Shown: positions 2,662 through 57,805 of the stretch, piece by piece
How the letters are laid out: each line of letters opens with the position of its first letter
Numbering within the stretch: the stretch's first letter is position 1
DNA from: Minisyncoccia bacterium
GTDB lineage: Bacteria; Patescibacteriota; Minisyncoccia; Phycocordibacterales; UBA9973
NCBI GenBank assembly: GCA_039809245.1
Contig: JBDHUP010000001.1
Span: 100,137-164,136 of the forward strand
Reading direction: 5' to 3'
Length of the DNA stretch: 64,000 nt
Program-made: the position numbers and the translations under genes
Notes under the pieces: model-generated
Told to the model about the DNA's origin: nothing
The model's input: only the letters and a program-made list of their open reading frames with translations
The model's database searches: none

Positions 2662-2732
2662 AGCGGGGTAGAGAAATGGTATCTCGCAAGGCTCATAACC
2701 TTGAGGCCCTAGTTCGATTCTAGGCCCCGCAA
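2662..2732 (+). tRNA. tRNA-Met (CAU), initiator-like. It has an A1:A72 mismatch and an A11:U24 pair.
   Basis: AGCGGGGTAGAGAAATGGTATCTCGCAAGGCTCATAACCTTGAGGCCCTAGTTCGATTCTAGGCCCCGCAA. T8, the CTCATAA loop and TTCGATT are all present. Confidence 0.7.
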
Positions 2733-2789
2733 CAAGCTAGGCATAGTGGCAGTGCCATAAATAACTAAGCCTTGGTGATTATGTTTTAT

Positions 2790-2866
2790 GTCGGCGTAGC
2801 TCAGCTGGTTAGAGCGTGGGACTCATAAGCCCAAGGTCGGTGGTTCGATCCCACCCGTCGACACCA
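2790..2866 (+). tRNA. tRNA with CAU anticodon (elongator Met or Ile2-type). CCA is encoded.
   Basis: GTCGGCGTAGCTCAGCTGGTTAGAGCGTGGGACTCATAAGCCCAAGGTCGGTGGTTCGATCCCACCCGTCGACACCA. Confidence 0.75.
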
Positions 2867-2987: not shown

Positions 2988-3061
2988 GCAGTCGTAGCTC
3001 AACTGGTTAGAGCACCCGCCTGTCACGCGGGAGGTTGAGGGTTCAAGTCCCTTCGACTGCG
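2988..3061 (+). tRNA. tRNA-Asp (GUC)
   Basis: GCAGTCGTAGCTCAACTGGTTAGAGCACCCGCCTGTCACGCGGGAGGTTGAGGGTTCAAGTCCCTTCGACTGCG. Discriminator is G. Confidence 0.85.
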
Positions 3062-3065
3062 CAAT

Positions 3066-11272: not shown

Positions 11273-12481
11273 TTAGTGTATTCCTCCGGCAATGTTGTAG
11301 ATAGGCATCAAAACAGAAGTCAGAAGAAGTCCTACTCCAAGACCAAGACCAACTATCATTAATGGCTCAATAAGACTAACGAGAGTATCTATAGCTTCAT
11401 TCACTTCACGAGCATAGAAGTGCCCTAGAGTTTTAAGTATGCTACCCATTGAACCAGTTTCTTCTCCAACTTTTACCATACCAGTCATAATGGAAGGAAT
11501 TTCTGGATGTGGTGCCAATGAATCAGAAAAAGAACTTCCACTCTTCACTTTCTCTGTGACATCCTTTAATATTCCTTCGTATACACTATTACCCACTACA
11601 CTTGAAGTAAGTTCTATGGCTCGAATAATAGGAATACCAGATGAAAGCATCGTGTCCATATTATCCGAAATGCGTGATAAATATAATTTAATATATATAT
11701 TCTTAAAAATTGGAACTGAAATTTTTACTCTATCTAGATATTGTTTACCAGACTTTGACTGAGTTAGTCTAACAAGATATATAACAAACAAAATAAATCC
11801 AATTAAAATAAATATTCCATAATTAACTAATAAGTCACTAATACCCATAACAATCTTAGTAGATAAAGGTATTTCTTGACCAGATTCCTTGATTATAACG
11901 GCTAGTCTAGGAACAATAAAAACAAACATTAATGTCATAACCGCAATAAAAACTCCAACTACGAACCCTGGATAAACCAGGGCGTTTTTAGTTTTTGAAG
12001 TTAATTGGTATTGGCGATCAAGATATTCTGCTAAATATGAAAATGTTTGAGTAAGCTTTCCAGATTCTTCACCAGCCTTTACCATATTTACATAAAAATC
12101 TGAAAAGGCTTCTGGATGTTTAGCGAGTGCTTGAGATATAGTGACACCTGAAGAAATATCGGCAGATACACTATTTAGAACTTTAACCAACGCTGCATTC
12201 TCAGTATTTGAAGCAAGAAGATTAAAAGCTTTAAGGGCTGAAACTTGAGCTTCAAAGAGCGTAGATATCTGTCGTGACATAATAACCACATCTTTCTGTG
12301 CAACACCTTTTTCAAAAAAAGACATTTGCAATAATCCTTTCTTCTCAGTTTCTTCATTTATTGAAAGAACTATAAGACCTCTACGCTGTACCGCAATAAC
12401 AGCCAAATCTTTGGAAGCAGCGTCTACCGTTCCTTTCTTTTTCTCACCTGTATTTGTAATAGCGTCATAAGTAAATAACAT
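11273..12481 (-). CDS. pilC: Type IV pilus assembly platform protein (GspF family)
   Basis: 402 aa polytopic protein with two GspF-type repeats. Confidence 0.85.
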   Translation of the reverse strand: MLFTYDAITNTGEKKKGTVDAASKDLAVIAVQRRGLIVLSINEETEKKGLLQMSFFEKGVAQKDVVIMSRQISTLFEAQVSALKAFNLLASNTENAALVKVLNSVSADISSGVTISQALAKHPEAFSDFYVNMVKAGEESGKLTQTFSYLAEYLDRQYQLTSKTKNALVYPGFVVGVFIAVMTLMFVFIVPRLAVIIKESGQEIPLSTKIVMGISDLLVNYGIFILIGFILFVIYLVRLTQSKSGKQYLDRVKISVPIFKNIYIKLYLSRISDNMDTMLSSGIPIIRAIELTSSVVGNSVYEGILKDVTEKVKSGSSFSDSLAPHPEIPSIMTGMVKVGEETGSMGSILKTLGHFYAREVNEAIDTLVSLIEPLMIVGLGLGVGLLLTSVLMPIYNIAGGIH

Positions 12482-12487
12482 AAGAAA

Positions 12488-13546
12488 TTATAACATTCGC
12501 TCTAGAGCTTTAGGATTAATTGAATATTGGTATGCGCTCTCCATACTTATTTCCCCTCTTTGTACAAGTTCAACAAGAGATCTATTCATATCAACCATTC
12601 CAGATTCTGAAGAAGTTTCTATAACATTATTTATCTCATGTGTACGCTTTTCTCGAATAAGATTTGATACTGCGTTATTATTTATCAAAAGTTCATATGC
12701 TGGAACACGTCCTCCAGCTATACGAGGAACAAGTCTTTGAGAAAAAACGGCAATTAAACTAGATGCGAGTTGTAAACGAATTTGATCTTGCTGAGATGCT
12801 GGGAATGAATCGATAATACGGTCTATTGTTTGTGATGCATTATTTGTATGAAGGGTTGAGAGAACTAAGTGTCCAGTTTCTGCGGCTGTTACAGCTGCAG
12901 AAATAGTAGCTGCGTCACGCATTTCACCTATAAAAATAACATTAACATCTTCACGAAAGACTGATTTTAAAGCCCCATTAAAACTCTCTGTATCAATACC
13001 AACTTCTCTTTGATCAATTATAGATTTATCAGGTTTATACACAAACTCTATAGGATCTTCAATAGTGACAATATGTGCTGCTCTTTCACTATTAATCATA
13101 TTTATCATAGTAGATAAAGTTGTTGATTTACCTTGACCAACTGGACCGACTACAAGAAAGAAACCTTGATTCTTCTGAGCAAAACTGGCAAGAATTGGAG
13201 GAAGGTTTAATTCTTCAAATGACTTTGCTTTCGGGATAAGACGAAGAGCAATACCAATAAGACCTCTCTGATAGAAAGCGTTGCCACGTAAATGTGTATC
13301 TTCTTCAAAAGAGTAAGAGAAATCGGCTTCTTTTTCTTCGGTAAATTTTTTAGTTTTTTCTGAGCCTAGAATTACAGTTAGTATTCCAATCATATCTTCA
13401 TTTGTTAAGACTTCTTGATTAGCTAGAAACAGAAGTTGCCCAGCAATACGCATAGCTGGCTTTCTACCTGCTCCTAAGTGTAGATCTGATCCATCTTCAC
13501 GCATAAGGCTGGTAAGTAATTCATTTAAAAATTTTTTATAATCCAT
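12488..13546 (-). CDS. pilT: Twitching-motility/retraction ATPase PilT
   Basis: 352 aa. Walker A GPVGQGKSTT, Asp box and His box of the PilT family. Confidence 0.85.
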   Translation of the reverse strand: MDYKKFLNELLTSLMREDGSDLHLGAGRKPAMRIAGQLLFLANQEVLTNEDMIGILTVILGSEKTKKFTEEKEADFSYSFEEDTHLRGNAFYQRGLIGIALRLIPKAKSFEELNLPPILASFAQKNQGFFLVVGPVGQGKSTTLSTMINMINSERAAHIVTIEDPIEFVYKPDKSIIDQREVGIDTESFNGALKSVFREDVNVIFIGEMRDAATISAAVTAAETGHLVLSTLHTNNASQTIDRIIDSFPASQQDQIRLQLASSLIAVFSQRLVPRIAGGRVPAYELLINNNAVSNLIREKRTHEINNVIETSSESGMVDMNRSLVELVQRGEISMESAYQYSINPKALERML

Positions 13547-13554
13547 AATAATTT

Positions 13555-13947
13555 TTATTTATTATTTACAGTACTAATAATACTATTAACTTTATCTATA
13601 ACTTCAGAAGGAGTGCTAGATGCTTTTACTATATAACCTGCTGCTCCTAATGATTCCCCTCTCGCTATATCTGATGGTTGACCTCGGTTAGATAAAACAA
13701 CGCGGATAGCTCCTGGTGCTAATTTTTCCTCATTCATTTTTTCCATAAGTTCAAATCCGTCCATAACAGGCATTACTATATCTAAGAGTATTATATCTGG
13801 ATTAAGACCTAAATGAAGTTTCTCTAAGGCTTGTTCAGAACCAAGTGAAGTAGTTACGTCAAAATTAGACTGATGGAATTTCAATGCATACATATCGAGA
13901 AGGAAGCTATCATCGTCAATAATCAAAATTTTTTTCTTTACTTCCAT
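13555..13947 (-). CDS. Stand-alone CheY-like response-regulator receiver domain (PilH-like), embedded in the pilus operon
   Basis: KILIIDDDSFLLDMY...DIILLDIVMPVMDGFEL... Confidence 0.8.
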   Translation of the reverse strand: MEVKKKILIIDDDSFLLDMYALKFHQSNFDVTTSLGSEQALEKLHLGLNPDIILLDIVMPVMDGFELMEKMNEEKLAPGAIRVVLSNRGQPSDIARGESLGAAGYIVKASSTPSEVIDKVNSIISTVNNK

Positions 13948-13984
13948 ATAAGGATATTATAATACAGTTACTATACTTTGCCTA

Positions 13985-15730
13985 CTAAAAGTTATAAACC
14001 TCCTGGAAAGGAATACTACCATTTAGACTCTTTACAATTGCATCTTCTCTTATAGAAAGCATTCCACGAGATCTAGCGAGTTTATAAATCTCTTGTTCTT
14101 GTGGTTTCTTAAGTATTATATTTTGCATTTCTTTATCAATTTCAAACATTTCAAACAAAGCAATACGACCTCTCATTCCAGATGGACATTCAGGTGAAGG
14201 AACAGCTTCGTACATTGACTTACCTATATTTAACTTACTCTTGTATTCTTCTGGTAAATCTTGGAATTGTTTTTCGAGCATTATCTTAGTAGCTTCATCT
14301 ATAGGAATTTCATGTTTTGAGGCTGGGAAAATACGGCGAGCTAGACGCTGAGCAACACATAATATAAGTGTAGGAGCGATAAGGTAAGGATCAATTCCCA
14401 TATCTATTAGACGTGGTATAGCTCCAACAGAAGAGTTAGTGTGGAGAGTAGAGAAAACTAAGTGACCAGTAAGAGCTGCTTGAATTGCAAGCTCGGCTGT
14501 TTCTTTATCTCTTATCTCTCCAACATATATTATATCTGGGTCCTGACGTAAAATTGACCTAAGTCCTGAAGCAAAAGTATAACCAATTTCAGGAGTAACT
14601 TGAGATTGATTTACTCCATCAATATGATATTCAACTGGATCTTCTAGAGAAACTATATTCTTTTCTTCATGATCAAGTTCATTTAGCATAGAATAAAGTG
14701 TTGTTGTCTTACCAGAACCAGTTGGACCTGTAAGGAGTATTAAGCCATAAGGTTTCGTGAGAGCGCTCCTAACCAGAGCTAAGTTTTCTTTAGACATATC
14801 TAGATTCCCTAGAGATTGAACTCCTTTATCAGAATCAAGGATACGCATAACAATTTTTTCTCCATAGTATGATGGCATTGTAGAAACACGAAAATCGATT
14901 TTTCGACCATCAATCTTGGCAGAGAATCCTCCATCTTGAGGTTTTCTTTTCTCATCAAGTCTTAACTTCGCTAATATTTTTATACGGGCAACTACTCCAT
15001 TATAGACATTTATAGGCAGTACAAGTGAAGTGTGTAAAACACCGTCAATACGAAATCTTACTCTGACTTTATCACCAACATTTTCAATATGTATATCAGA
15101 AGCAGAACCTTCTGTCGCATGTCTTAAAATAACTGCAACTATTTTAATGATTGGAGCATCTTCAACAATCCTTTCTTCTTCACCTGGTTTTAAAGAATCA
15201 GAAGTTTTTGTATTTTTCTCAATTGTAACACCCTCATCCCCCTCTCCTTTTGCTCCAGCTATTTCAGAATCAAGTTCTGAAAGAGCTTGGTCAACTTCGC
15301 TACCTAATCCTTCGTATGCTTGAATAAGTTGATTGTAAGTTGAAGTTTTAATCAAAAATAACTTGAACGGCTTATTCATTTTTGAAGTTATAAATGTAAG
15401 TGCATCTATAGCTTGAACGTTTTCTGGGTCTGTTATTCCTATTTCAAGAACACTATCAGAAACTCCTATAGGAACAAAGTGGTAAATCTTTGCCGATTCA
15501 GCTGGAATTAACTCTAGCGTTGATGGAACCACTCTCTTAGGATCAATATCTTTTATTGGAACATTGAAAATAGCTCCTTTTGCTTGAAGGATAGCATTCT
15601 CATCCAAATTAAAATCTAATAGGGCTTGGTCGACATTACCACTATATTTCTCATCAGCAATTTTTAAGACTTCAGGTATTTGTATTTCTTTTAGGATGCC
15701 TCTTTTTACTAATTCATCAAGAATTATCAT
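13985..15730 (-). CDS. pilB: Type IV pilus assembly ATPase PilB (GspE family)
   Basis: 581 aa. N-terminal GspII-like domain, Walker A LLTGPTGSGKTTTLYS, and a tetracysteine region. Confidence 0.9.
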   Translation of the reverse strand: MIILDELVKRGILKEIQIPEVLKIADEKYSGNVDQALLDFNLDENAILQAKGAIFNVPIKDIDPKRVVPSTLELIPAESAKIYHFVPIGVSDSVLEIGITDPENVQAIDALTFITSKMNKPFKLFLIKTSTYNQLIQAYEGLGSEVDQALSELDSEIAGAKGEGDEGVTIEKNTKTSDSLKPGEEERIVEDAPIIKIVAVILRHATEGSASDIHIENVGDKVRVRFRIDGVLHTSLVLPINVYNGVVARIKILAKLRLDEKRKPQDGGFSAKIDGRKIDFRVSTMPSYYGEKIVMRILDSDKGVQSLGNLDMSKENLALVRSALTKPYGLILLTGPTGSGKTTTLYSMLNELDHEEKNIVSLEDPVEYHIDGVNQSQVTPEIGYTFASGLRSILRQDPDIIYVGEIRDKETAELAIQAALTGHLVFSTLHTNSSVGAIPRLIDMGIDPYLIAPTLILCVAQRLARRIFPASKHEIPIDEATKIMLEKQFQDLPEEYKSKLNIGKSMYEAVPSPECPSGMRGRIALFEMFEIDKEMQNIILKKPQEQEIYKLARSRGMLSIREDAIVKSLNGSIPFQEVYNF

Positions 15731-15731
15731 A

Positions 15732-16412
15732 CTAATTTGTATTAAATGAAACTACATCACCATATATCGGTGCAGTTCCTACTTTTGCGACTGCCCTATA
15801 AAAGTAAGTAGTCTCTGGAGTTAATCCTTTAATACTTGTAACGAAAGTACCGACTAAAGATTGTTTTACTGGAGATGTGGATTGGCCTAGCTCTGGATCT
15901 GCTCCATATTCAAAGAAAACACTAGTAACTCCACTAAGATTATTTATTGTTCCATTTAAAATTGCACTCTTATCAGTAACCTGAGTTGGGTCATTTGTAA
16001 CAACAGGAGACAAAGCAGAGTTGCTAGAAGAAACTTCGGAAGAAAACGGAGCAAAAGGGTTAGGACGTCCAGGAACTGCAGCTTCTAAATTAACAGTATT
16101 ATCATTAAGCGATAAGAATTCTTGACTGTTAAATATAGTAGTATCAATTTTAATTTTTTTTAGAGATGTGAGTGTCGCAAGAAAAGCAGTATCTTCGGCA
16201 ATTTTATCTTCATTATTTATCCCTAAGACTGAAGAAGAACTACCATTTTGAGATACAAGAGAAGAATTTGCAGAGACAGGAGTATCTAAAGCTTGGACAT
16301 ACAAACTATTTGAAAAATAACTATAAACACCGCCTACTAATAGAGCGAGAGATGTTATTATTAAAAATTTGTTATATGATTTATTCATATTATTTAAGCC
16401 AGTAAGTTTCAA
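15732..16412 (-). CDS. Hypothetical secreted or membrane-anchored pilus-associated protein with a C-terminal beta-sandwich (FN3-like) domain
   Basis: N-terminal TM segment, a Ser-rich linker, and the C-terminal motif LNGTINNLSGVTSVFFEYGADPELGQ...TTYFYRAVAKVGT. Confidence 0.4.
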   Translation of the reverse strand: MKLTGLNNMNKSYNKFLIITSLALLVGGVYSYFSNSLYVQALDTPVSANSSLVSQNGSSSSVLGINNEDKIAEDTAFLATLTSLKKIKIDTTIFNSQEFLSLNDNTVNLEAAVPGRPNPFAPFSSEVSSSNSALSPVVTNDPTQVTDKSAILNGTINNLSGVTSVFFEYGADPELGQSTSPVKQSLVGTFVTSIKGLTPETTYFYRAVAKVGTAPIYGDVVSFNTN

Positions 16413-16980
16413 CTTTTAATGAAAATTCATAAATATTTGGGTCAACTCCATTTTGCTTAGAATCAGGAACTGTAAAACTAACAGATTTAATATCTACTAA
16501 TCGTAGATTATGCTCTACCTCAGATAAAAACTTCGCAAATGAATCATATGTTCCTTTTGTCGAAAACTCTACTGGGAAAACTCCATAAGGCAGAGCACTC
16601 GACGCTCCACTAGAGGCAACTACTGCACCATTATTATTCTTAGAAACTTCAGGGGCATTCTGCTGTGTTTGGAATTTAATATTTTCGACTGGCATGCCAT
16701 GAAGATTTGCTAATTGCTCTATCTCTAGTATAAACCTTATATTATTTACTGTGTTTGGTAAGAAATGAGCAAGGCGATCCTTATCAGCTTGGCTGATATT
16801 CTTATATGCATCAACTAATTTATCTCTAGTCTTTTGAAGATCAGTTGAATTATCTAATGCAACATTATAAACAAGAACATCAGCTTTTAATTGAGAAACT
16901 TCGGCTCGTATTGGATTTACAACTACAAAAAATAGTATGCCAGCGATTAGTATTAAAGATAGTGGAAATAGAAATCTCAT
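16390..16980 (-). CDS. pilO: PilO-like pilus assembly protein
   Basis: Single N-terminal TM segment plus a coiled-coil. Sits between the pilN-like gene and the ORF226/pilB genes. Confidence 0.55.
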   Translation of the reverse strand: MRFLFPLSLILIAGILFFVVVNPIRAEVSQLKADVLVYNVALDNSTDLQKTRDKLVDAYKNISQADKDRLAHFLPNTVNNIRFILEIEQLANLHGMPVENIKFQTQQNAPEVSKNNNGAVVASSGASSALPYGVFPVEFSTKGTYDSFAKFLSEVEHNLRLVDIKSVSFTVPDSKQNGVDPNIYEFSLKVETYWLK

Positions 16981-16982
16981 AT

Positions 16983-17717
16983 TTATTGGTTAGAGTTATT
17001 AGCCGGTAATGAAGTCTCTGGAGGATTAGAAACGGCAGGAGCAACTTGGTTGCTTTGTGTAGTAGAAGTGTCTTGGGTAGCAGGGCTATTATCTTCCGTG
17101 GTTGGTTGTAATTTTAACTGAGTTTGTTCTAGTAACAAATTCTTCTGATATGAAAGAAGCTCTGGGTCAACAATAAAATCTATATCAAAAGTAACATATC
17201 CATTCTTATTCCTCGTTAAGTTTGAAAAAACTACATTTTTAAAAGATCGTCCTTTAGCAGTATTAAAAACATCAGCTTGCAAGGCAATTGATCTATAATC
17301 ACGAGCAATTCCACTCATTTTTACAAAGAAACCTTTATCATTTGTTTGATGGTCAAATTTTGTATACTGAACTCCTGCTATGGTTAAATCACCGAGTAAT
17401 TTAAACAGCGGAGAAAGAACAATGTGACCGTTCAAAACTTGTTTAGCTGAAGATACACGCTTATCGTACAGTTCAAGTTCATCAATGGTGTCTTTCTCAA
17501 AACTATCTCTAACCTTCTCTAATGATGCAGATAGGATTTGCTTTTCTTTTATAAGATAGTTTTTATAAACATATAAACCTCCAGATGCTACCCCAGTAAC
17601 AATAAGAATTAATACGGAAAAAACCATAAAAAGATTCGTAGCTGGTTTACTTTTTGAAACACCAGAAGATGTAATGGGCTTTTTAGGTATAAATGATGTT
17701 TGAAATGAATTTTCCAT
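16983..17717 (-). CDS. pilN: PilN-like pilus assembly protein
   Basis: Single TM segment (LFMVFSVLILIVTGVASGGLYVY) followed by a coiled-coil. Immediately downstream of pilM. Confidence 0.55.
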   Translation of the reverse strand: MENSFQTSFIPKKPITSSGVSKSKPATNLFMVFSVLILIVTGVASGGLYVYKNYLIKEKQILSASLEKVRDSFEKDTIDELELYDKRVSSAKQVLNGHIVLSPLFKLLGDLTIAGVQYTKFDHQTNDKGFFVKMSGIARDYRSIALQADVFNTAKGRSFKNVVFSNLTRNKNGYVTFDIDFIVDPELLSYQKNLLLEQTQLKLQPTTEDNSPATQDTSTTQSNQVAPAVSNPPETSLPANNSNQ

Positions 17718-17725
17718 AATTATAG

Positions 17726-18895
17726 TTAAGATAGTTGGCGTAATGCAAGACCAACCGCCACAGCAAACTCAGGACCGCTTGTTTGTAGGACTGGTTCAAG
17801 AAAGGCTGGTGCCTCTGTTTTCGAAAATGGATTACCGTAGACTACTTCCATATTAAAATTTGCAATAGCATGCTCAAGTAATCCTTTAAGTAGAGAACCT
17901 CCTCCCGTCATAATAACCTTACTTATATTTTTATTATACTTCTTCTCGTAAGCAAGCACAACACTATTTGTCTCTGAGAATATATAATCTGTGGATAGAC
18001 GAACAATGTCAGATACTTGTGAATTCGCTAGTGCATCTAGTCCAATTGATCGCTTCAGTTTTTCAGCTTCATTAAAAGGAATAGTTAGAGATTGTGAAAT
18101 ATTTTTTGATATATCTTGTGAACCACGATTAACTATATGAAATACTCTCACAACACCAGCTTCTACAATAGAAAGCTTTGTTTTTGAAGCTCCAAAATCC
18201 ATCAAAAGTACGGGGGCAAGGTCGTTATTGAAAGTTGAACGAATATTACTAAATACTTCCATCTCAAAAGAATCAGAATGTATCTCAGTCTTTGTTAGAA
18301 TTTCTTGAAACCTAGATAGTGTATCATTGTGTATAGCTACAACTAAAATTTCTAATTTCGGTTCAGCAACTTTTTTATCTTTTTGTTCATTCATCGAATC
18401 TTCAAAATTATCAATTTCCTGTGGAATAACAAACCAGTCAAGCGATACTTCAGAAATAGGAACTGGAATATACTTTCTAGCTTCAATTGGAACTATAGAA
18501 GCGAGTTGATCTTCATTAACTTTAGCAGGAAGAGATATTGTAAAAATCAAACTTGCTGCTGAAGGAATAGCTATAACTCCTGACATGGTCGTGATATTAG
18601 ATTCCTTTATAACATCGGTTAGAGCTCTGGCAATATCATCTGTTGACAGATTTGTGACAACTCCTACATCTGTATTGCCATATGGACCCAATGAAAGAGC
18701 ACCATAAGTTTCAAGAACAGCTTTGCCACCTTTCTTTTTAAGTTGGACAACTTTTATTGCAGATGAACCTATATCTATGCCTAGTACACTTTCTGATGCT
18801 TTTTCAGATTTAAATATATTAGATAAACTAGATAGCCCCCCAGAAATTATTTTCTTTAGTGAATTGTCCATATATACTACTATGTAGTATACCAT
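17726..18895 (-). CDS. pilM: Type IV pilus assembly protein PilM (actin-like ATPase)
   Basis: IGIDIGSSAIKVVQL... actin/HSP70-like fold. Its start is probably the internal Met (MDNSLKK) near 18871. Confidence 0.8.
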   Translation of the reverse strand: MVYYIVVYMDNSLKKIISGGLSSLSNIFKSEKASESVLGIDIGSSAIKVVQLKKKGGKAVLETYGALSLGPYGNTDVGVVTNLSTDDIARALTDVIKESNITTMSGVIAIPSAASLIFTISLPAKVNEDQLASIVPIEARKYIPVPISEVSLDWFVIPQEIDNFEDSMNEQKDKKVAEPKLEILVVAIHNDTLSRFQEILTKTEIHSDSFEMEVFSNIRSTFNNDLAPVLLMDFGASKTKLSIVEAGVVRVFHIVNRGSQDISKNISQSLTIPFNEAEKLKRSIGLDALANSQVSDIVRLSTDYIFSETNSVVLAYEKKYNKNISKVIMTGGGSLLKGLLEHAIANFNMEVVYGNPFSKTEAPAFLEPVLQTSGPEFAVAVGLALRQLS

Positions 18896-24150: not shown

Positions 24151-24154
24151 TTTG

Positions 24155-24240
24155 CGGAGGCGGTGAGATTCGAACTCACGGTCCTTTAAAGGGACGACGG
24201 TTTAGTAAACCGTTGATTTAAACCACTCATCCACGCCTCC
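24155..24240 (-). tRNA. Type II (long variable arm) tRNA-Ser-like gene with anticodon loop TTACTAA (anticodon ACU, A34)
   Basis: Reverse complement is GGAGGCGTGGATGAGTGGTTTAAATCAACGGTTTACTAAACCGTCGTCCCTTTAAAGGACCGTGAGTTCGAATCTCACCGCCTCCG. 3-bp D-stem, discriminator G, long variable hairpin. Confidence 0.7.
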
Positions 24241-25630: not shown

Positions 25631-25717
25631 GGAGACGTGTCAGAGTGGTCTAACGTACCTCCTTGCTAAGGAGGCAGGCTTTAATCGGCCTCGAGAGTTC
25701 GAATCTCTCCGTCTCCG
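25631..25717 (+). tRNA. tRNA-Ser (GCU), type II
   Basis: GGAGACGTGTCAGAGTGGTCTAACGTACCTCCTTGCTAAGGAGGCAGGCTTTAATCGGCCTCGAGAGTTCGAATCTCTCCGTCTCCG. Confidence 0.8.
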
Positions 25718-25727
25718 CACATAAAAA

Positions 25728-35972: not shown

Positions 35973-35973
35973 A

Positions 35974-35998
35974 AAAACTCCATTAAAATAATGGAGTT
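35974..35998. terminator. Bidirectional terminator hairpin between recG and the ORF92 gene
   Basis: actccatt/aatggagt inverted repeat with an AAAAT loop, flanked by A/T runs. Confidence 0.55.
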
Positions 35999-36015
35999 GT
36001 GTTGAATAAAAGATA

Positions 36016-36294
36016 TTATATAATTTTATAGATATTACTGAACGGTAGTGCTGTTACAAGCTTATTGGTTTTACGATTTTTAACTACTAAAACCCAATTA
36101 CGGTGGATAATTAATAGACCTATAAATGTATTCTCGGCATCTTTTTTTAATACTTTAACAGATTTTTTACATAATTCTATATATTTTTTATATGTAATAT
36201 TGATATCATATCTTTCATTGAGTCTTTCATTAAAGTGATAGTAAGAACTTTTCCACTCATTTTCTATGAGTTGTTCTTTTGTTAAAAAGATCAT
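36016..36294 (-). CDS. Hypothetical protein (92 aa)
   Basis: ORF only. Confidence 0.3.
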   Translation of the reverse strand: MIFLTKEQLIENEWKSSYYHFNERLNERYDINITYKKYIELCKKSVKVLKKDAENTFIGLLIIHRNWVLVVKNRKTNKLVTALPFSNIYKII

Positions 36295-36459
36295 TATTAT
36301 TAGTTTTAGATTTTAAAAATTAACCTTATTTTTAGACTATCTATTAAACAAGTTATTGTCAATCAAAATTGTCATCACAAATAATTCCGCACCGTCGTTA
36401 CGGAATTTTTGCGATCCCGGCTCGCAATTTTTCCTACTGGAAAAATAATGCTCCGCCCT

Positions 36460-36509
36460 GGACTACATAGAAAAAGGAGTACGCAGATACTCCTTTTTCT
36501 ATGTAGTCC
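36460..36509. repeat. 50-bp perfect palindrome (22-bp arms, 6-nt loop) abutting the 3' end of tRNA-Ile. A terminator or a MITE-like insertion.
   Basis: ggactacatagaaaaaggagta cgcaga tactcctttttctatgtagtcc. Flanked by tccgccct / tccaccct. Confidence 0.6.
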
Positions 36510-36580
36510 ACCCTCTTGGATTCGAACCAAGGACCCCAGAGGTATAAGCTCTGTGCTCTAACCAACTGAGCTAAGGGTGG
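36507..36580 (-). tRNA. tRNA-Ile (anticodon UAU, reads AUA)
   Basis: Reverse complement is CCACCCTTAGCTCAGTTGGTTAGAGCACAGAGCTTATACCTCTGGGGTCCTTGGTTCGAATCCAAGAGGGTGGA. Anticodon loop is CTTATAC. Confidence 0.75.
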
Positions 36581-36631
36581 AAATATGGTTAGCTATGAAC
36601 TTCTACATACTAACCAAATTTTGCTTATTTG

Positions 36632-38536
36632 TTAAGCTTTTGCTTCTTCTTTCTTTTTAGGCATTATGCCGTGAGTGGTTATTATCTGATTGTACTCATC
36701 TTGCTCGAGAGTTTCTACTTCTACTAATTTCTTAGCGATAGCTTCTAAAACTTTACGGTGCTCCGTAAGAGTTTGTTTGGCTACTTCAAGAGCCTTGTTC
36801 ATTATTTTAGAAACTTCACCATCAATGAGAGCACTAACTCTTTCAGAATATTCTTGTTCGTTCACACCGCGACCAAACATTGTTCTACCTCCATCACTCT
36901 CTAGTGCCATAGGACCTATCTCGTCACTCATACCCCATCGTGTCACCATAGCACGAGCAAGACCAGTTGCAACTTGCAAATCATTGGATGGGCCAGTAGT
37001 GATATCACCAAAGATCATTTGTTCAGCTGCATAGCCACCCATTGCCATCGCGATATCATCTAAGAATTCTTTTTTACTTTGCAGACGTCTCTCTTCAAGA
37101 GGTAGTTTAAGTGTATAACCTCCAGCAGATCCTCGAGATACAATAGAAACTTTGTGTACTGGATCTGCATAAGGAAGCACCGATGCCACAAGTGCATGAC
37201 CTGCTTCATGGTAAGCTGTAATCTCTTTCTCTTTCTTTGACAGTAAGTGACTCTTGCGCTCAGGACCCATCATGACTTTCTCTATTGAACGTATCAGGTC
37301 GAACTGTGCAACTTTCTTGCGATCTTCACGAGCTGCAAGAATCGCGCCTTCGTTCATAAGTGAATAAAGATCAGCTCCAGAGAATCCAGGAGTGCGCTCG
37401 GCAATGATTTTCAAATTTACATCTTCAGCAAATGGTTTTTTATGTGAGTGTATAGTAAGTATTTCTTCACGATCTGATCGATCTGGAAGATCTAGAAGAA
37501 CTCTTCGATCAAAACGTCCTGGACGTAGGAGCGCAGGGTCGAGCACATCGGAACGGTTCGTCGCAGCCATAACTATTACCTTTTCATTCGGCTCGAATCC
37601 ATCCATCTCGACTAGTATCTGGTTTAGAGTTTGTTCGCGTTCATCATTTCCTCCTCCAACACCAGAACCACGTACACGTCCAACTGCATCTATCTCATCG
37701 ATAAATATTATCGCTGGTGCTGCTTTCTTTGCCATCTTGAACAAGTCGCGAACACGAGAAGCTCCAACTCCGACGAACATTTCGACGAATTCAGAACCAG
37801 ACAAGTGGAAGAATGGCACACTCGCTTCCCCTGCTACCGCACGAGCAAGTAGAGTCTTTCCTGTTCCTGGAGCACCTGTTAAGATAACTCCTTTCGGAAT
37901 ACGAGCACCTATATCAAGAAACTTTTTCGGGTTCCTCAAGAAGTCTACGATCTCTTTCAATTCTTCTTTAGCTTCTTTTGCTCCGGCAACATCTTTGAAT
38001 GTCACACGATTATTCTTATCATTTGGGTCAGTGATACGAGCTTTTGATTGACCGAAAGTGAAGGCTTGCATACCTTGGCCTTTCACTTGCCTTGTCAGCA
38101 TCCAGATAAAGAATATAACAAGTACAACTGGTAGAAGGAATGGGAGTATATTGAGCAACCAATATCCGAAACCACCCTGATCTTTCACTTCTATTGGTGT
38201 CTCAGCTAGCTGAGCTGGAGTAACACCATAGTTATATAGAGTCTCAGAAAGTGAACTCTCTATTTCTTTTTTTGCTTTGCCTAGTGTATCGTCTTTGAAA
38301 GTAACATCAATCTCTTGTCCTATAACTTCTATCTTCTTTATTGTACCTTCGGTAACACTCTTGGCTACATCAGAAATAGTAAGATCTTTTATGGTCTCAG
38401 GGGTTTTAGCTAATAGTGAGTAAATAATCGTAATACTAATAAATATAAAGATAGCAATGACGATTTGACTGCCAATTTTAGGTATTTTCTGTTGGGGTTT
38501 CCTTTTGTTCTTATCCATAGTATGGCCATTATACAC
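36632..38536 (-). CDS. ftsH: ATP-dependent zinc metalloprotease FtsH
   Basis: Two N-terminal TM helices. AAA Walker A GAPGTGKT. Zinc motif HEAGHAL. Confidence 0.95.
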
Positions 38537-39146: not shown

Positions 39147-39180
39147 ATATAAAAACTCCGCTTGCGCAGAGTTTTTATAT
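39147..39180 (-). terminator. Rho-independent terminator of ssrA
   Basis: aaaaactccgc...gcagagttttt inverted repeat directly downstream of the tmRNA 3' end. Confidence 0.55.
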
Positions 39181-39182
39181 TG

Positions 39183-39578
39183 TGGAGATGGGCGGAGTTG
39201 AACCGCCATGCAAAAGAAGTTCATAGGTGAATCTACATGTTTATCATGTTCGATTGGGTTTAAACGGGAAAGCTAGAGAACAGGCAATATACTTTCGCGC
39301 CGAGCTCTTCATTGTCGGAATTCTATGCAAGCGGTATAAAATTCGTAACCCGATTAATTATGCCTCCCCTATTTATCGGATGTCGATAAGAGAGACACCT
39401 GACCGGCTTAAGTTAAGCGAGTACAGGAGCAAAGTTTAAACCAAATGCGTTAGCAAATGGTGACTTTACTGAAGCGACTTTGTTTGCACTTAGTCTTTTC
39501 CAAGAAGTTTAGAAAGATTCCTGGGTACTTTACATGCACATCTATGAGTGACGTCCTTTGTCGAAGCCCGTCATCCCC
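39183..39578 (-). ncRNA. ssrA: tmRNA (SsrA), standard one-piece form. The tag reading frame at 39413..39487 encodes ANKVASVKSPFANAFGLNFAPVLA-stop.
   Basis: 5' end is GGGGATGACGGGCTTCGAC. 3' end is GGCGGTTCAACTCCGCCCATCTCCA, with acceptor GGGGATG/CATCTCC including the G3:U70 pair. Resume context GACUAAGU GCA AAC matches the E. coli UAGUC GCA AAC context. smpB is adjacent. Confidence 0.85.
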
Positions 39579-57040: not shown

Positions 57041-57052
57041 ATAGTTTAATTA

Positions 57053-57238
57053 TTACCAACTTGATTTACGAACACCTGGAAGCATACCTTCGTTTGCCAT
57101 TTCACGGAAACAGATACGGCAAAGTCCGAAATCTCTCATATATGCATGACCGCGTCCACAGCGAAAACAACGATTTGTTTCTCGTGTTGAAAATTTTGAT
57201 TTCTTATGATGTCTTGCTAATACTGATGTTTTTGCCAT
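57053..57238 (-). CDS. rpsN: 30S ribosomal protein S14, type Z (zinc-binding)
   Basis: 61 aa with [20 protein letters not shown]. Confidence 0.9.
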
Positions 57239-57382
57239 AAATAATGAAAGGGATTTTGTTCCCCTAGTGATTTCGAGATATCTCGTTCTTTTTCTTAAAA
57301 GCTTTGGCCCTTAAGGAGAAGCACGGATCTACGACTCACGTTCCCCTATACTAGCAGATAGGGTTATCTATGTCAAACTATT

Positions 57383-57805
57383 CTATTTACAGTTAATACC
57401 AGCTCTATATCCTGGTTCTTCTAGTTCAGTAGTATAGAAACCTTTACTGTCAGCACAATAGTACTTACCTGCTGGGACCTTGATACGAGCTGTGAATGTA
57501 TGGACATTGGCAACACATTCGACAGGGTTATCTATCACCTTCTTTAAGGCATCGAACTTAGATTGCATACTTACACAGATGTTGTTGTACTTAGAAATAA
57601 AGTAGTTATTGTGATCGTAGAAGAACTTTTGAGCTTGGATTTGAAGCTGATTTGAGACAACGTCTTTAATTATAGCTTCAGCAGAAGCTGTATCCTTTGC
57701 TTTTAGAGATCTTTGGAATTCAGCATTCTGATCGAGTTTGAAATATTTATATCCAGCGAATATTAGTATCGCAAATCCTATAATAAACAATATTAGCTTA
57801 GTCAT
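57383..57805 (-). CDS. Hypothetical membrane-anchored protein inserted between rplE and rpsN
   Basis: N-terminal TM segment (LILFIIGFAILIFAGY). C-terminal domain has 4 Cys. Sits between rplE and rpsN. Confidence 0.45.
   Translation of the reverse strand: MTKLILFIIGFAILIFAGYKYFKLDQNAEFQRSLKAKDTASAEAIIKDVVSNQLQIQAQKFFYDHNNYFISKYNNICVSMQSKFDALKKVIDNPVECVANVHTFTARIKVPAGKYYCADSKGFYTTELEEPGYRAGINCK

Follow-up and report, generated by a model that had tools for sequence, protein, structure and literature searches.

The enzyme TilS is considered essential and nearly ubiquitous in bacteria, as well as a drug target specific to them, and papers of 2025-2026 describe tilS as nearly universal, with Mycoplasma mobile as the sole cited exception. 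TilS-independent AUA decoding by a tRNA-Ile(UAU) was listed in 2013 for nine species in three clades (PMC3575796), and UAU has been proposed as the ancestral AUA decoder (PMC3575796). M. mobile has a tRNA-Ile2(UAU) with a genomic TAT anticodon, abundant AUA codons, and a small, AT-rich genome (PMC1635315, PMC3575796); tilS is missing beside ftsH, and no CAU tRNAs are seen other than the initiator and the elongator tRNA-Met. Experiments on this species established a tilS-free whole genome, an unmodified U34, an IleRS with Arg865, and rejection of AUG by the ribosome. In Bifidobacterium, Neorickettsia, and the hemoplasmas, tRNA-Ile(UAU) replaces the lysidine system clade-wide (PMC3575796), and the first two have a eukaryote-type IleRS. 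A tRNA-Ile gene with a TAT anticodon also occurs sporadically, together with tilS, in Lactobacillus casei/plantarum, Cyanothece PCC 7424, and Ferrimonas (PMC3575796). Eukaryotic cytoplasmic tRNA-Ile(UAU) likewise uses a UAU-type anticodon for AUA, with pseudouridines at U34 and U36, and is encoded by an intron-bearing gene. This intron is required for the pseudouridylation.

We analyzed a 64-kb stretch of bacterial DNA (hereafter, the window) that carries a tRNA-Ile gene with a TAT anticodon. The kind of decoding to which it points, TilS-independent reading of AUA as in M. mobile, is known; what is new is its probable clade-wide occurrence in a lineage of the CPR. The likeness to M. mobile extends to the genomic TAT anticodon, the abundance of AUA in a small, AT-rich genome, the lack of tilS beside ftsH, and the presence of initiator and elongator tRNA-Met as the only CAU tRNAs seen. 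The experimental properties listed above were established in M. mobile, whereas here genes alone were read. Furthermore, M. mobile is a single species, whereas the gene described here extends over no fewer than 72 species of a CPR clade at class level, and the M. mobile tRNA was reported to be closest to tRNA-Ile(GAU), whereas the window tRNA has acceptor pairs of the Ile2 type. The window lineage shares clade-wide use of tRNA-Ile(UAU) with Bifidobacterium, Neorickettsia, and the hemoplasmas, which belong to other phyla. Unlike the sporadic genes of Lactobacillus, Cyanothece, and Ferrimonas, the gene is conserved and syntenic, with no tilS in the DNA examined, and in contrast to the eukaryotic gene it is intronless and has bacterial features. 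The lysidine system, in which TilS acts with tRNA-Ile2(CAU), also reads AUA and not AUG as Ile, and shares with the window the ftsH neighborhood and the Ile2-like acceptor pairs. That system combines a CAT anticodon with TilS, whereas the window tRNA has TAT and no TilS was detected in the DNA examined; because the anticodon is TAT and not CAT, modification of C34 is unneeded.

Relatives of the window were collected by an FtsH search of one-genome-per-species contigs, which returned 80 loci (64–89% identity). Their labels are Candidatus Nomurabacteria, Taylorbacteria, Paceibacteria/Paceibacterota, and Parcubacteria, in addition to generic ones (uncultured bacterium, Candidatus Saccharibacteria) and a single Burkholderiales. 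Based on these FtsH relatives, we take the window to come from a Nomurabacteria-like bacterium of the CPR class Paceibacteria. The DNA covered comprises 64 kb of this genome and, for each relative, about 20 kb, and same-species contigs are present in three public runs. The window has a G+C content of about 36% and encodes core genes including gatA, ligA, a type IV pilus cluster, a B12-dependent ribonucleotide reductase, recG, ftsH, tmRNA, smpB, truB, infC-rpmI-rplT, and the spc ribosomal protein operon with secY. The FtsH protein translated from the ATG at 38518 is identical to a recorded product, whereas a look-up from the GTG start gave no match. About half of the relatives have a tmRNA gene in the 10 kb upstream of ftsH, and tmRNA, ftsH, and tRNA-Ile(UAU) thus form a loosely conserved block. 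In the spc operon, rpsN (S14) would be expected between rplE and rpsH, but this interval (57041-57805) contains a 140-aa ORF that matches no Pfam family, as well as a 340-nt gap. No L30 gene is present between S5 and L15 in this operon, a loss known for CPR bacteria.

The tRNA gene was called as tRNA-Ile(tat) by ARAGORN in the 64-kb window, and positions 36507-36580 match the Rfam tRNA model RF00005 with 69 bits (gathering score 29, E = 5.8e-13; Table 1). The preliminary description had placed a UAU-anticodon tRNA at 36507-36580 without stating its strand; the tRNA is real and lies on the minus strand, and the loop CTTATAC given there agrees with the anticodon tat returned by ARAGORN. Positions 1-73 of the tRNA correspond to 36580..36507, 36506 is one additional C, and the anticodon TAT occupies plus-strand positions 36544-36546. 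The tRNA has a canonical cloverleaf with the discriminator A73, and CCA is not encoded. From 5' to 3', its first part reads CCACCCU-UA-GCUC-AGUUGGUUA-GAGC-A-CAGAG-CUUAUAC-CUCUG and the remainder GGGUC-CUUGG-UUCGAAU-CCAAG-AGGGUGG-A. The D and anticodon arms were not recovered by a minimum-free-energy fold of this single sequence; comparative analysis recovers them.

Table 1 Coordinates of the features of the window discussed in the text.
Feature	Position	Strand	Basis or remark
Initiator tRNA-fMet (CAU)	2662..2733	+	ARAGORN, Rfam, discriminators of PMC1635315
Elongator tRNA-Met (CAU), CCA encoded, A73	2790..2866	+	ARAGORN, Rfam, discriminators of PMC1635315
tRNA-Ser(ACU), A34	24154-24240	-	Paired with tRNA 25631-25718 (+)
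Perfect 22-bp inverted repeat (hairpin)	36460..36509	-	Sequence reading
tRNA-Ile, anticodon UAU	36506..36580	-	ARAGORN, Rfam RF00005, 72 of 80 relatives, covariation
Anticodon loop C32-U33-U34-A35-U36-A37-C38	36542..36548	-	Sequence reading and 48 distinct orthologues
Promoter-like site TTAACA-17-TAGTAT	36607..36635	-	Consensus scan
ftsH, upstream neighbor and synteny anchor	36632..38518	-	NCBIfam TIGR01241, 782 bits
tmRNA, tag ANKVASVKSPFANAFGLNFAPVLA, between smpB and ftsH	39180-39578	-	Window

A tRNA-Ile(UAU) gene adjoins ftsH in 72 of the 80 related species, and six of the eight relatives without it have less than 1 kb of sequence past ftsH. The tRNA follows the ftsH stop codon at a median distance of 157 nt in the relatives, compared to 51 nt in the window, and it is on the same strand as ftsH in 55 and on the opposite strand in 17 of these 72 relatives. 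The orthologues comprise 61 distinct sequences, 48 of which were aligned. Positions C32, U33, U34, A35, U36, and A37 are invariant among the 48, as are the D stem and A73, and C38 is present in at least 90%. Standard pairs make up 99.5% of the 1008 stem cells of the aligned cloverleaf, compensatory (both-sided) changes occur in 16 of the 21 stem pairs, and the covariation score is 0.759, compared to 0.09–0.15 in controls with partners slid by 1–3 columns. The recurrence in 72 of 80 species, the near-complete pairing, and the compensatory pairs place the tRNA far beyond chance. Judged from this pattern of substitution, the gene is functional and its anticodon is under strict purifying selection. 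A pseudogene or a recent mutation was considered and ruled out by the invariant anticodon together with the compensatory stem changes.

We also scanned metagenome data with a query consisting of the D-arm plus CT-N-ATAC, in which position 34 was left free. Among the matches listed (at least 120 contigs), 65 had T at position 34, 29 had G, 22 had C, and 4 had A; 18 of the 65 UAU contigs among the matches listed carry a Paceibacteria-like ftsH (48–86% identity). The strategy had been characterized beforehand as rare, which is correct for the kind itself, known as rare, but not within this lineage, where it is the rule (72 of 80 species and at least 65 further metagenome contigs). Metagenome data were previously found to contain 371 unique tRNA-Ile(TAT) genes of unknown origin (Taniguchi et al. 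2013, PMC3575796), and Paceibacteria are a plausible source of many of these orphan genes.

On its upstream side, tRNA-Ile(UAU) is preceded at about 27 nt by a promoter-like site that overlaps the end of ftsH, from which the tRNA might be expressed; co-transcription with ftsH is equally possible. The downstream side is variable between strains. A same-species contig (L002) is 100% identical to the window across ftsH and tRNA-Ile(UAU), and this homology stops exactly at 36506. Beyond that point, the window has 533 bp (35973-36505) where L002 has 5.77 kb of unrelated DNA (12014-17781) encoding an M23 peptidase, a DUF5663 protein, and a 1499-aa protein; homology restarts at the recG stop codon, with an identity of only 95.3%. 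The onset of the variable segment is marked in the window by the inverted repeat (Table 1), which starts within the final bases of the tRNA, has the arms GGACTACATAGAAAAAGGAGTA ... TACTCCTTTTTCTATGTAGTCC, and is not present in L002; it may be a terminator or a recombination site. From the comparison of the two contigs, the segment at the 3' end of the tRNA looks like a strain-variable island or a recombination breakpoint.

Such a breakpoint could also suggest that the tRNA itself is an accessory gene delivered by a phage or mobile element, and among E. coli and phage records it is most similar by blastn to tRNAs of prophages or phages (~77–79% identity). Delivery of this kind is nonetheless very improbable here, given that the tRNA falls within the conserved part, 100% identical to L002, and that its position beside ftsH is constant in 72 species. 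Other elements commonly insert at the 3' ends of tRNAs, which accounts for the variable flank.

To establish what the tRNA decodes, we considered codon usage and the identity elements of the tRNA body. ATA accounts for 653 of the 17,946 codons in 67 window ORFs (36.4 per 1000) and for 41% of the Ile codons, about level with ATT. The preliminary description had named AUA codon usage as a check, and the outcome is in its favor: AUA is heavily used, and it encodes Ile according to the columns of the FtsH alignment. In this alignment of 81 sequences, residues aligned to ATA are ~61% I, 14% V, and 12% L, the same profile as for ATT/ATC. The 15 near-invariant Ile columns of the 81 ftsH genes contain 534 ATT, 374 ATA, and 279 ATC codons, whereas the eight near-invariant Met columns contain no ATA. 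The three codons thus replace one another freely where FtsH has a conserved Ile, so AUA means Ile in this lineage; as a major codon for this amino acid, it needs an efficient reader.

Assignment of the isotype by the nearest annotated tRNA (blastn of the three tRNAs, i.e., the UAU and two CAU tRNAs, against E. coli genomes and phages) was tried and rejected as uninformative at ~73–79% identity. The best matches of the three were to tRNA-Arg, Val, Asn, or Met, a mixture of isotypes that is due to the shared D-arm, and published discriminator positions were therefore used instead. The Ile identity marks A73, A35, U36, A37, and U12-A23 are invariant in the 48 orthologues of tRNA-Ile(UAU), C4-G69 is present in 41 and C5-G68 in 27 of them, and all 48 have the Ile2-type pair G3-C70 or A3-U70. 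Two E. coli Ile identity elements are absent, with C38 in place of A38 and G29-C41 in place of C29-G41.

The closest E. coli blastn match of the tRNA is a tRNA-Arg (77%), and E. coli tRNA-Arg(UCU) (argU) shares its acceptor stem with some of the orthologues. An Arg-like body with a mutated anticodon could thus be charged with another amino acid, or AUA could be reassigned; UGA is known to be reassigned in other CPR classes. Insertion of an amino acid other than Ile is, however, exceedingly improbable. ATA swaps with ATT and ATC in the invariant Ile columns of FtsH and never appears in the invariant Met columns. The ArgRS identity determinants are A20 and C35, and both are absent from tRNA-Ile(UAU), which carries A73, A35, U36, A37, C4-G69, and U12-A23. 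We therefore retain isoleucine as the meaning of AUA and as the amino acid that tRNA-Ile(UAU) would insert.

The two CAU tRNAs of the window were assigned with the same kind of evidence. A11-U24 and G12-C23 are the complete initiator discriminators (Silva et al. 2006, PMC1635315), Met and fMet tRNAs typically carry C3-G70, G3 or A3 with C70 or U70 is diagnostic of tRNA-Ile(CAU), and C4-G69 and C5-G68 are frequent in tRNA-Ile(CAU) (PMC1635315). The first CAU tRNA is the initiator, since it has A11-U24, G12-C23, and an A1xA72 mismatch, and the second is Met-like because of C3-G70, G4-C69, and G5-U68. The Ile2 marks (G3/A3, C4-G69, C5-G68) occur on neither of them and are found on the UAU tRNA instead. 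These published discriminators bear out, for the window, the earlier suggestion that the two CAU tRNAs are the initiator and elongator tRNA-Met. The single CAU tRNA seen in a relative (L028) adjoins tRNA-Asp and is Met-like in the same way as the second CAU tRNA of the window.

Some further features of this tRNA cluster were recorded. The initiator has A1xA72 where C1xA72 is usual, and its anticodon stem has two of the three consecutive G:C pairs (A29-U41). Just upstream of the intact tRNA-Asp gene (2988-3062), a truncated and diverged copy of the 5' half of tRNA-Asp (~2893-2950; atgcagtcgtagctcaact...) looks like a remnant of tRNA duplication.

We also searched for tilS. The PP-loop motif SGGxDS was found in no six-frame ORF of the 64-kb window, and in the first 83 related loci it occurred only in GuaA (L012) and as a chance match in an oligoendopeptidase (L047). 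A tblastn search with E. coli TilS against 1.36 Mb (the window and related loci) gave a best E-value of 6.5, and six metagenomic TilS queries gave nothing below E = 0.18 against 1.8 Mb of Paceibacteria or UAU-bearing DNA (i.e., DNA around ftsH or the UAU tRNA from 80 species and 65 listed metagenome contigs). The method works, because the same E. coli query detected TilS in at least six CAU-bearing control contigs (E-values from 8e-25 to 2e-7). Six unrelated metagenome contigs of 39–65% G+C (L157, L201, L145, L137, L146, and L113) have a tRNA(CAU) with the loop CUCAUAC, either Met or Ile2, immediately upstream of tilS; ftsH follows tilS in L157 and L201, giving the order tRNA(CAU)-tilS-ftsH.

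Linkage of tilS to ftsH is known from mycoplasmas (pth-tilS-ftsH), and in Southlakia epibionticum, a cultured CPR Saccharibacterium, tilS (SEML1_0730, K04075) lies directly upstream of ftsH (SEML1_0729; PMC10633639). In all 80 ftsH loci from genomes the corresponding slot lacked tilS, and the 18 ftsH-bearing UAU metagenome loci among the matches listed, several of which are partial, gave no TilS match either. Upstream of the window ftsH, this slot holds only a species-specific 112-aa ORF, followed by the tmRNA. This ORF was considered as a remnant of TilS and rejected, as it has no Pfam match and no homologue outside the species. The conjecture in the preliminary description that the genome may lack tilS thus agrees with the searches, which found none in the 64-kb window or at the usual ftsH-linked position. 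In the loci examined, tilS is absent from its expected place beside ftsH across the lineage, and it was probably lost from an ancestral place upstream of ftsH. Given that 72 of the 80 relatives keep tRNA-Ile(UAU) beside ftsH, this large related group probably does without TilS.

The inspected DNA amounts to about 64 kb of this genome, and tilS, together with a lysidine-dependent tRNA-Ile2(CAU), could lie elsewhere in it, with the UAU tRNA as an auxiliary reader of AUA. Such redundant decoding has precedents in the mixed genomes of Lactobacillus, Cyanothece, and Ferrimonas introduced above, and nearly all bacteria are described as having tilS (PMC11947777). We nevertheless consider it unlikely. 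The persistence of the UAU tRNA in 72 of the 80 species of this deep clade, with its anticodon unchanged, fits an essential rather than an accessory gene. None of the 80 genome loci has tilS in the slot upstream of ftsH, where it is found in another CPR class and in the control contigs. The listed UAU metagenome loci with ftsH, several of them partial, likewise gave no TilS match, and the UAU tRNA itself carries the Ile2-type acceptor stem.

This acceptor stem also bears on the origin of the gene. The body of tRNA-Ile(UAU), with G3-C70/A3-U70, C4-G69, and C5-G68, suggests descent from a lysidine-dependent tRNA-Ile2(CAU) through a C34-to-U change, based on a few acceptor-stem positions of the UAU tRNA. 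Taking the results together, tRNA-Ile(UAU) is likely to be the working AUA decoder of this Candidatus Nomurabacteria (class Paceibacteria, CPR/Patescibacteria) genome. For the wider proposition, that Paceibacteria as a whole, including Nomurabacteria and Taylorbacteria, lost tilS upstream of ftsH and decode AUA with an Ile2-derived (C34-to-U) tRNA-Ile(UAU), the evidence leans toward acceptance, with somewhat less assurance.

If tRNA-Ile(UAU) is the AUA decoder, the following steps can be envisaged. The 3' CCA would be added and the tRNA then charged by an IleRS that accepts U34, as inferred from M. mobile. Acceptance of U34 could be provided by an IleRS with Arg/Lys at the position equivalent to E. 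coli W905 or by a eukaryote-type IleRS; no IleRS, sought as a long ORF containing KMSKS, was detected in the window or the fetched loci. A37 probably carries t6A, and AUA would be read by pairing of U34 with its A. Misreading of AUG by U-G wobble may be limited in the manner of M. mobile, through an unmodified or pseudouridylated U34, discrimination by the ribosome, and competition from tRNA-Met. Speculatively, codon binding could be tuned by the conserved C32 and C38.

In the literature searched, we found no paper that links lysidine or TilS with CPR, Patescibacteria, or Parcubacteria, and tilS is not mentioned in the supplements of a CPR metabolism paper. If the clade-wide reading is true, the exceptions to TilS would be greatly widened by a class-level, environmentally abundant CPR clade that reads a major codon (41% of Ile codons in the window) with a UAU anticodon that TilS cannot modify, by far the largest bacterial radiation known to lack lysidine. 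Its many independent sequences could then be used to study the adaptation of IleRS and the ribosome to U34 and their avoidance of AUG. In addition, the clade is relevant to the proposed ancestral role of UAU in decoding AUA. For annotation, TIGR02432 would be unsafe as a universal marker in this lineage, and its CAU tRNAs should not be annotated automatically as Ile2.

A second tRNA of the window, tRNA-Ser(ACU), may be more unusual than tRNA-Ile(UAU). It is accompanied by tRNA-Ser(GCU) and is shared by the window and 11 related species (L012, L014, L016, L020, L025, L026, L027, L030, L039, L060, and L083), with 12 distinct sequences. These sequences have an invariant loop U-U-A-C-U-A-A, compensatory stem changes, a long variable arm, and G73. 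Besides Arg(ACG), tRNAs with A34 are very rare (PMC11066159), and the A34 of tRNA-Ser(ACU) is probably unmodified, because inosine at this position would misread AGA (Arg). The occurrence of tRNA-Ser(ACU) and tRNA-Ile(UAU) in one lineage hints at a broadly reorganized wobble decoding with few modifications. Among the Ser codons of the window, AGU occurs 258 times and AGC 72 times.
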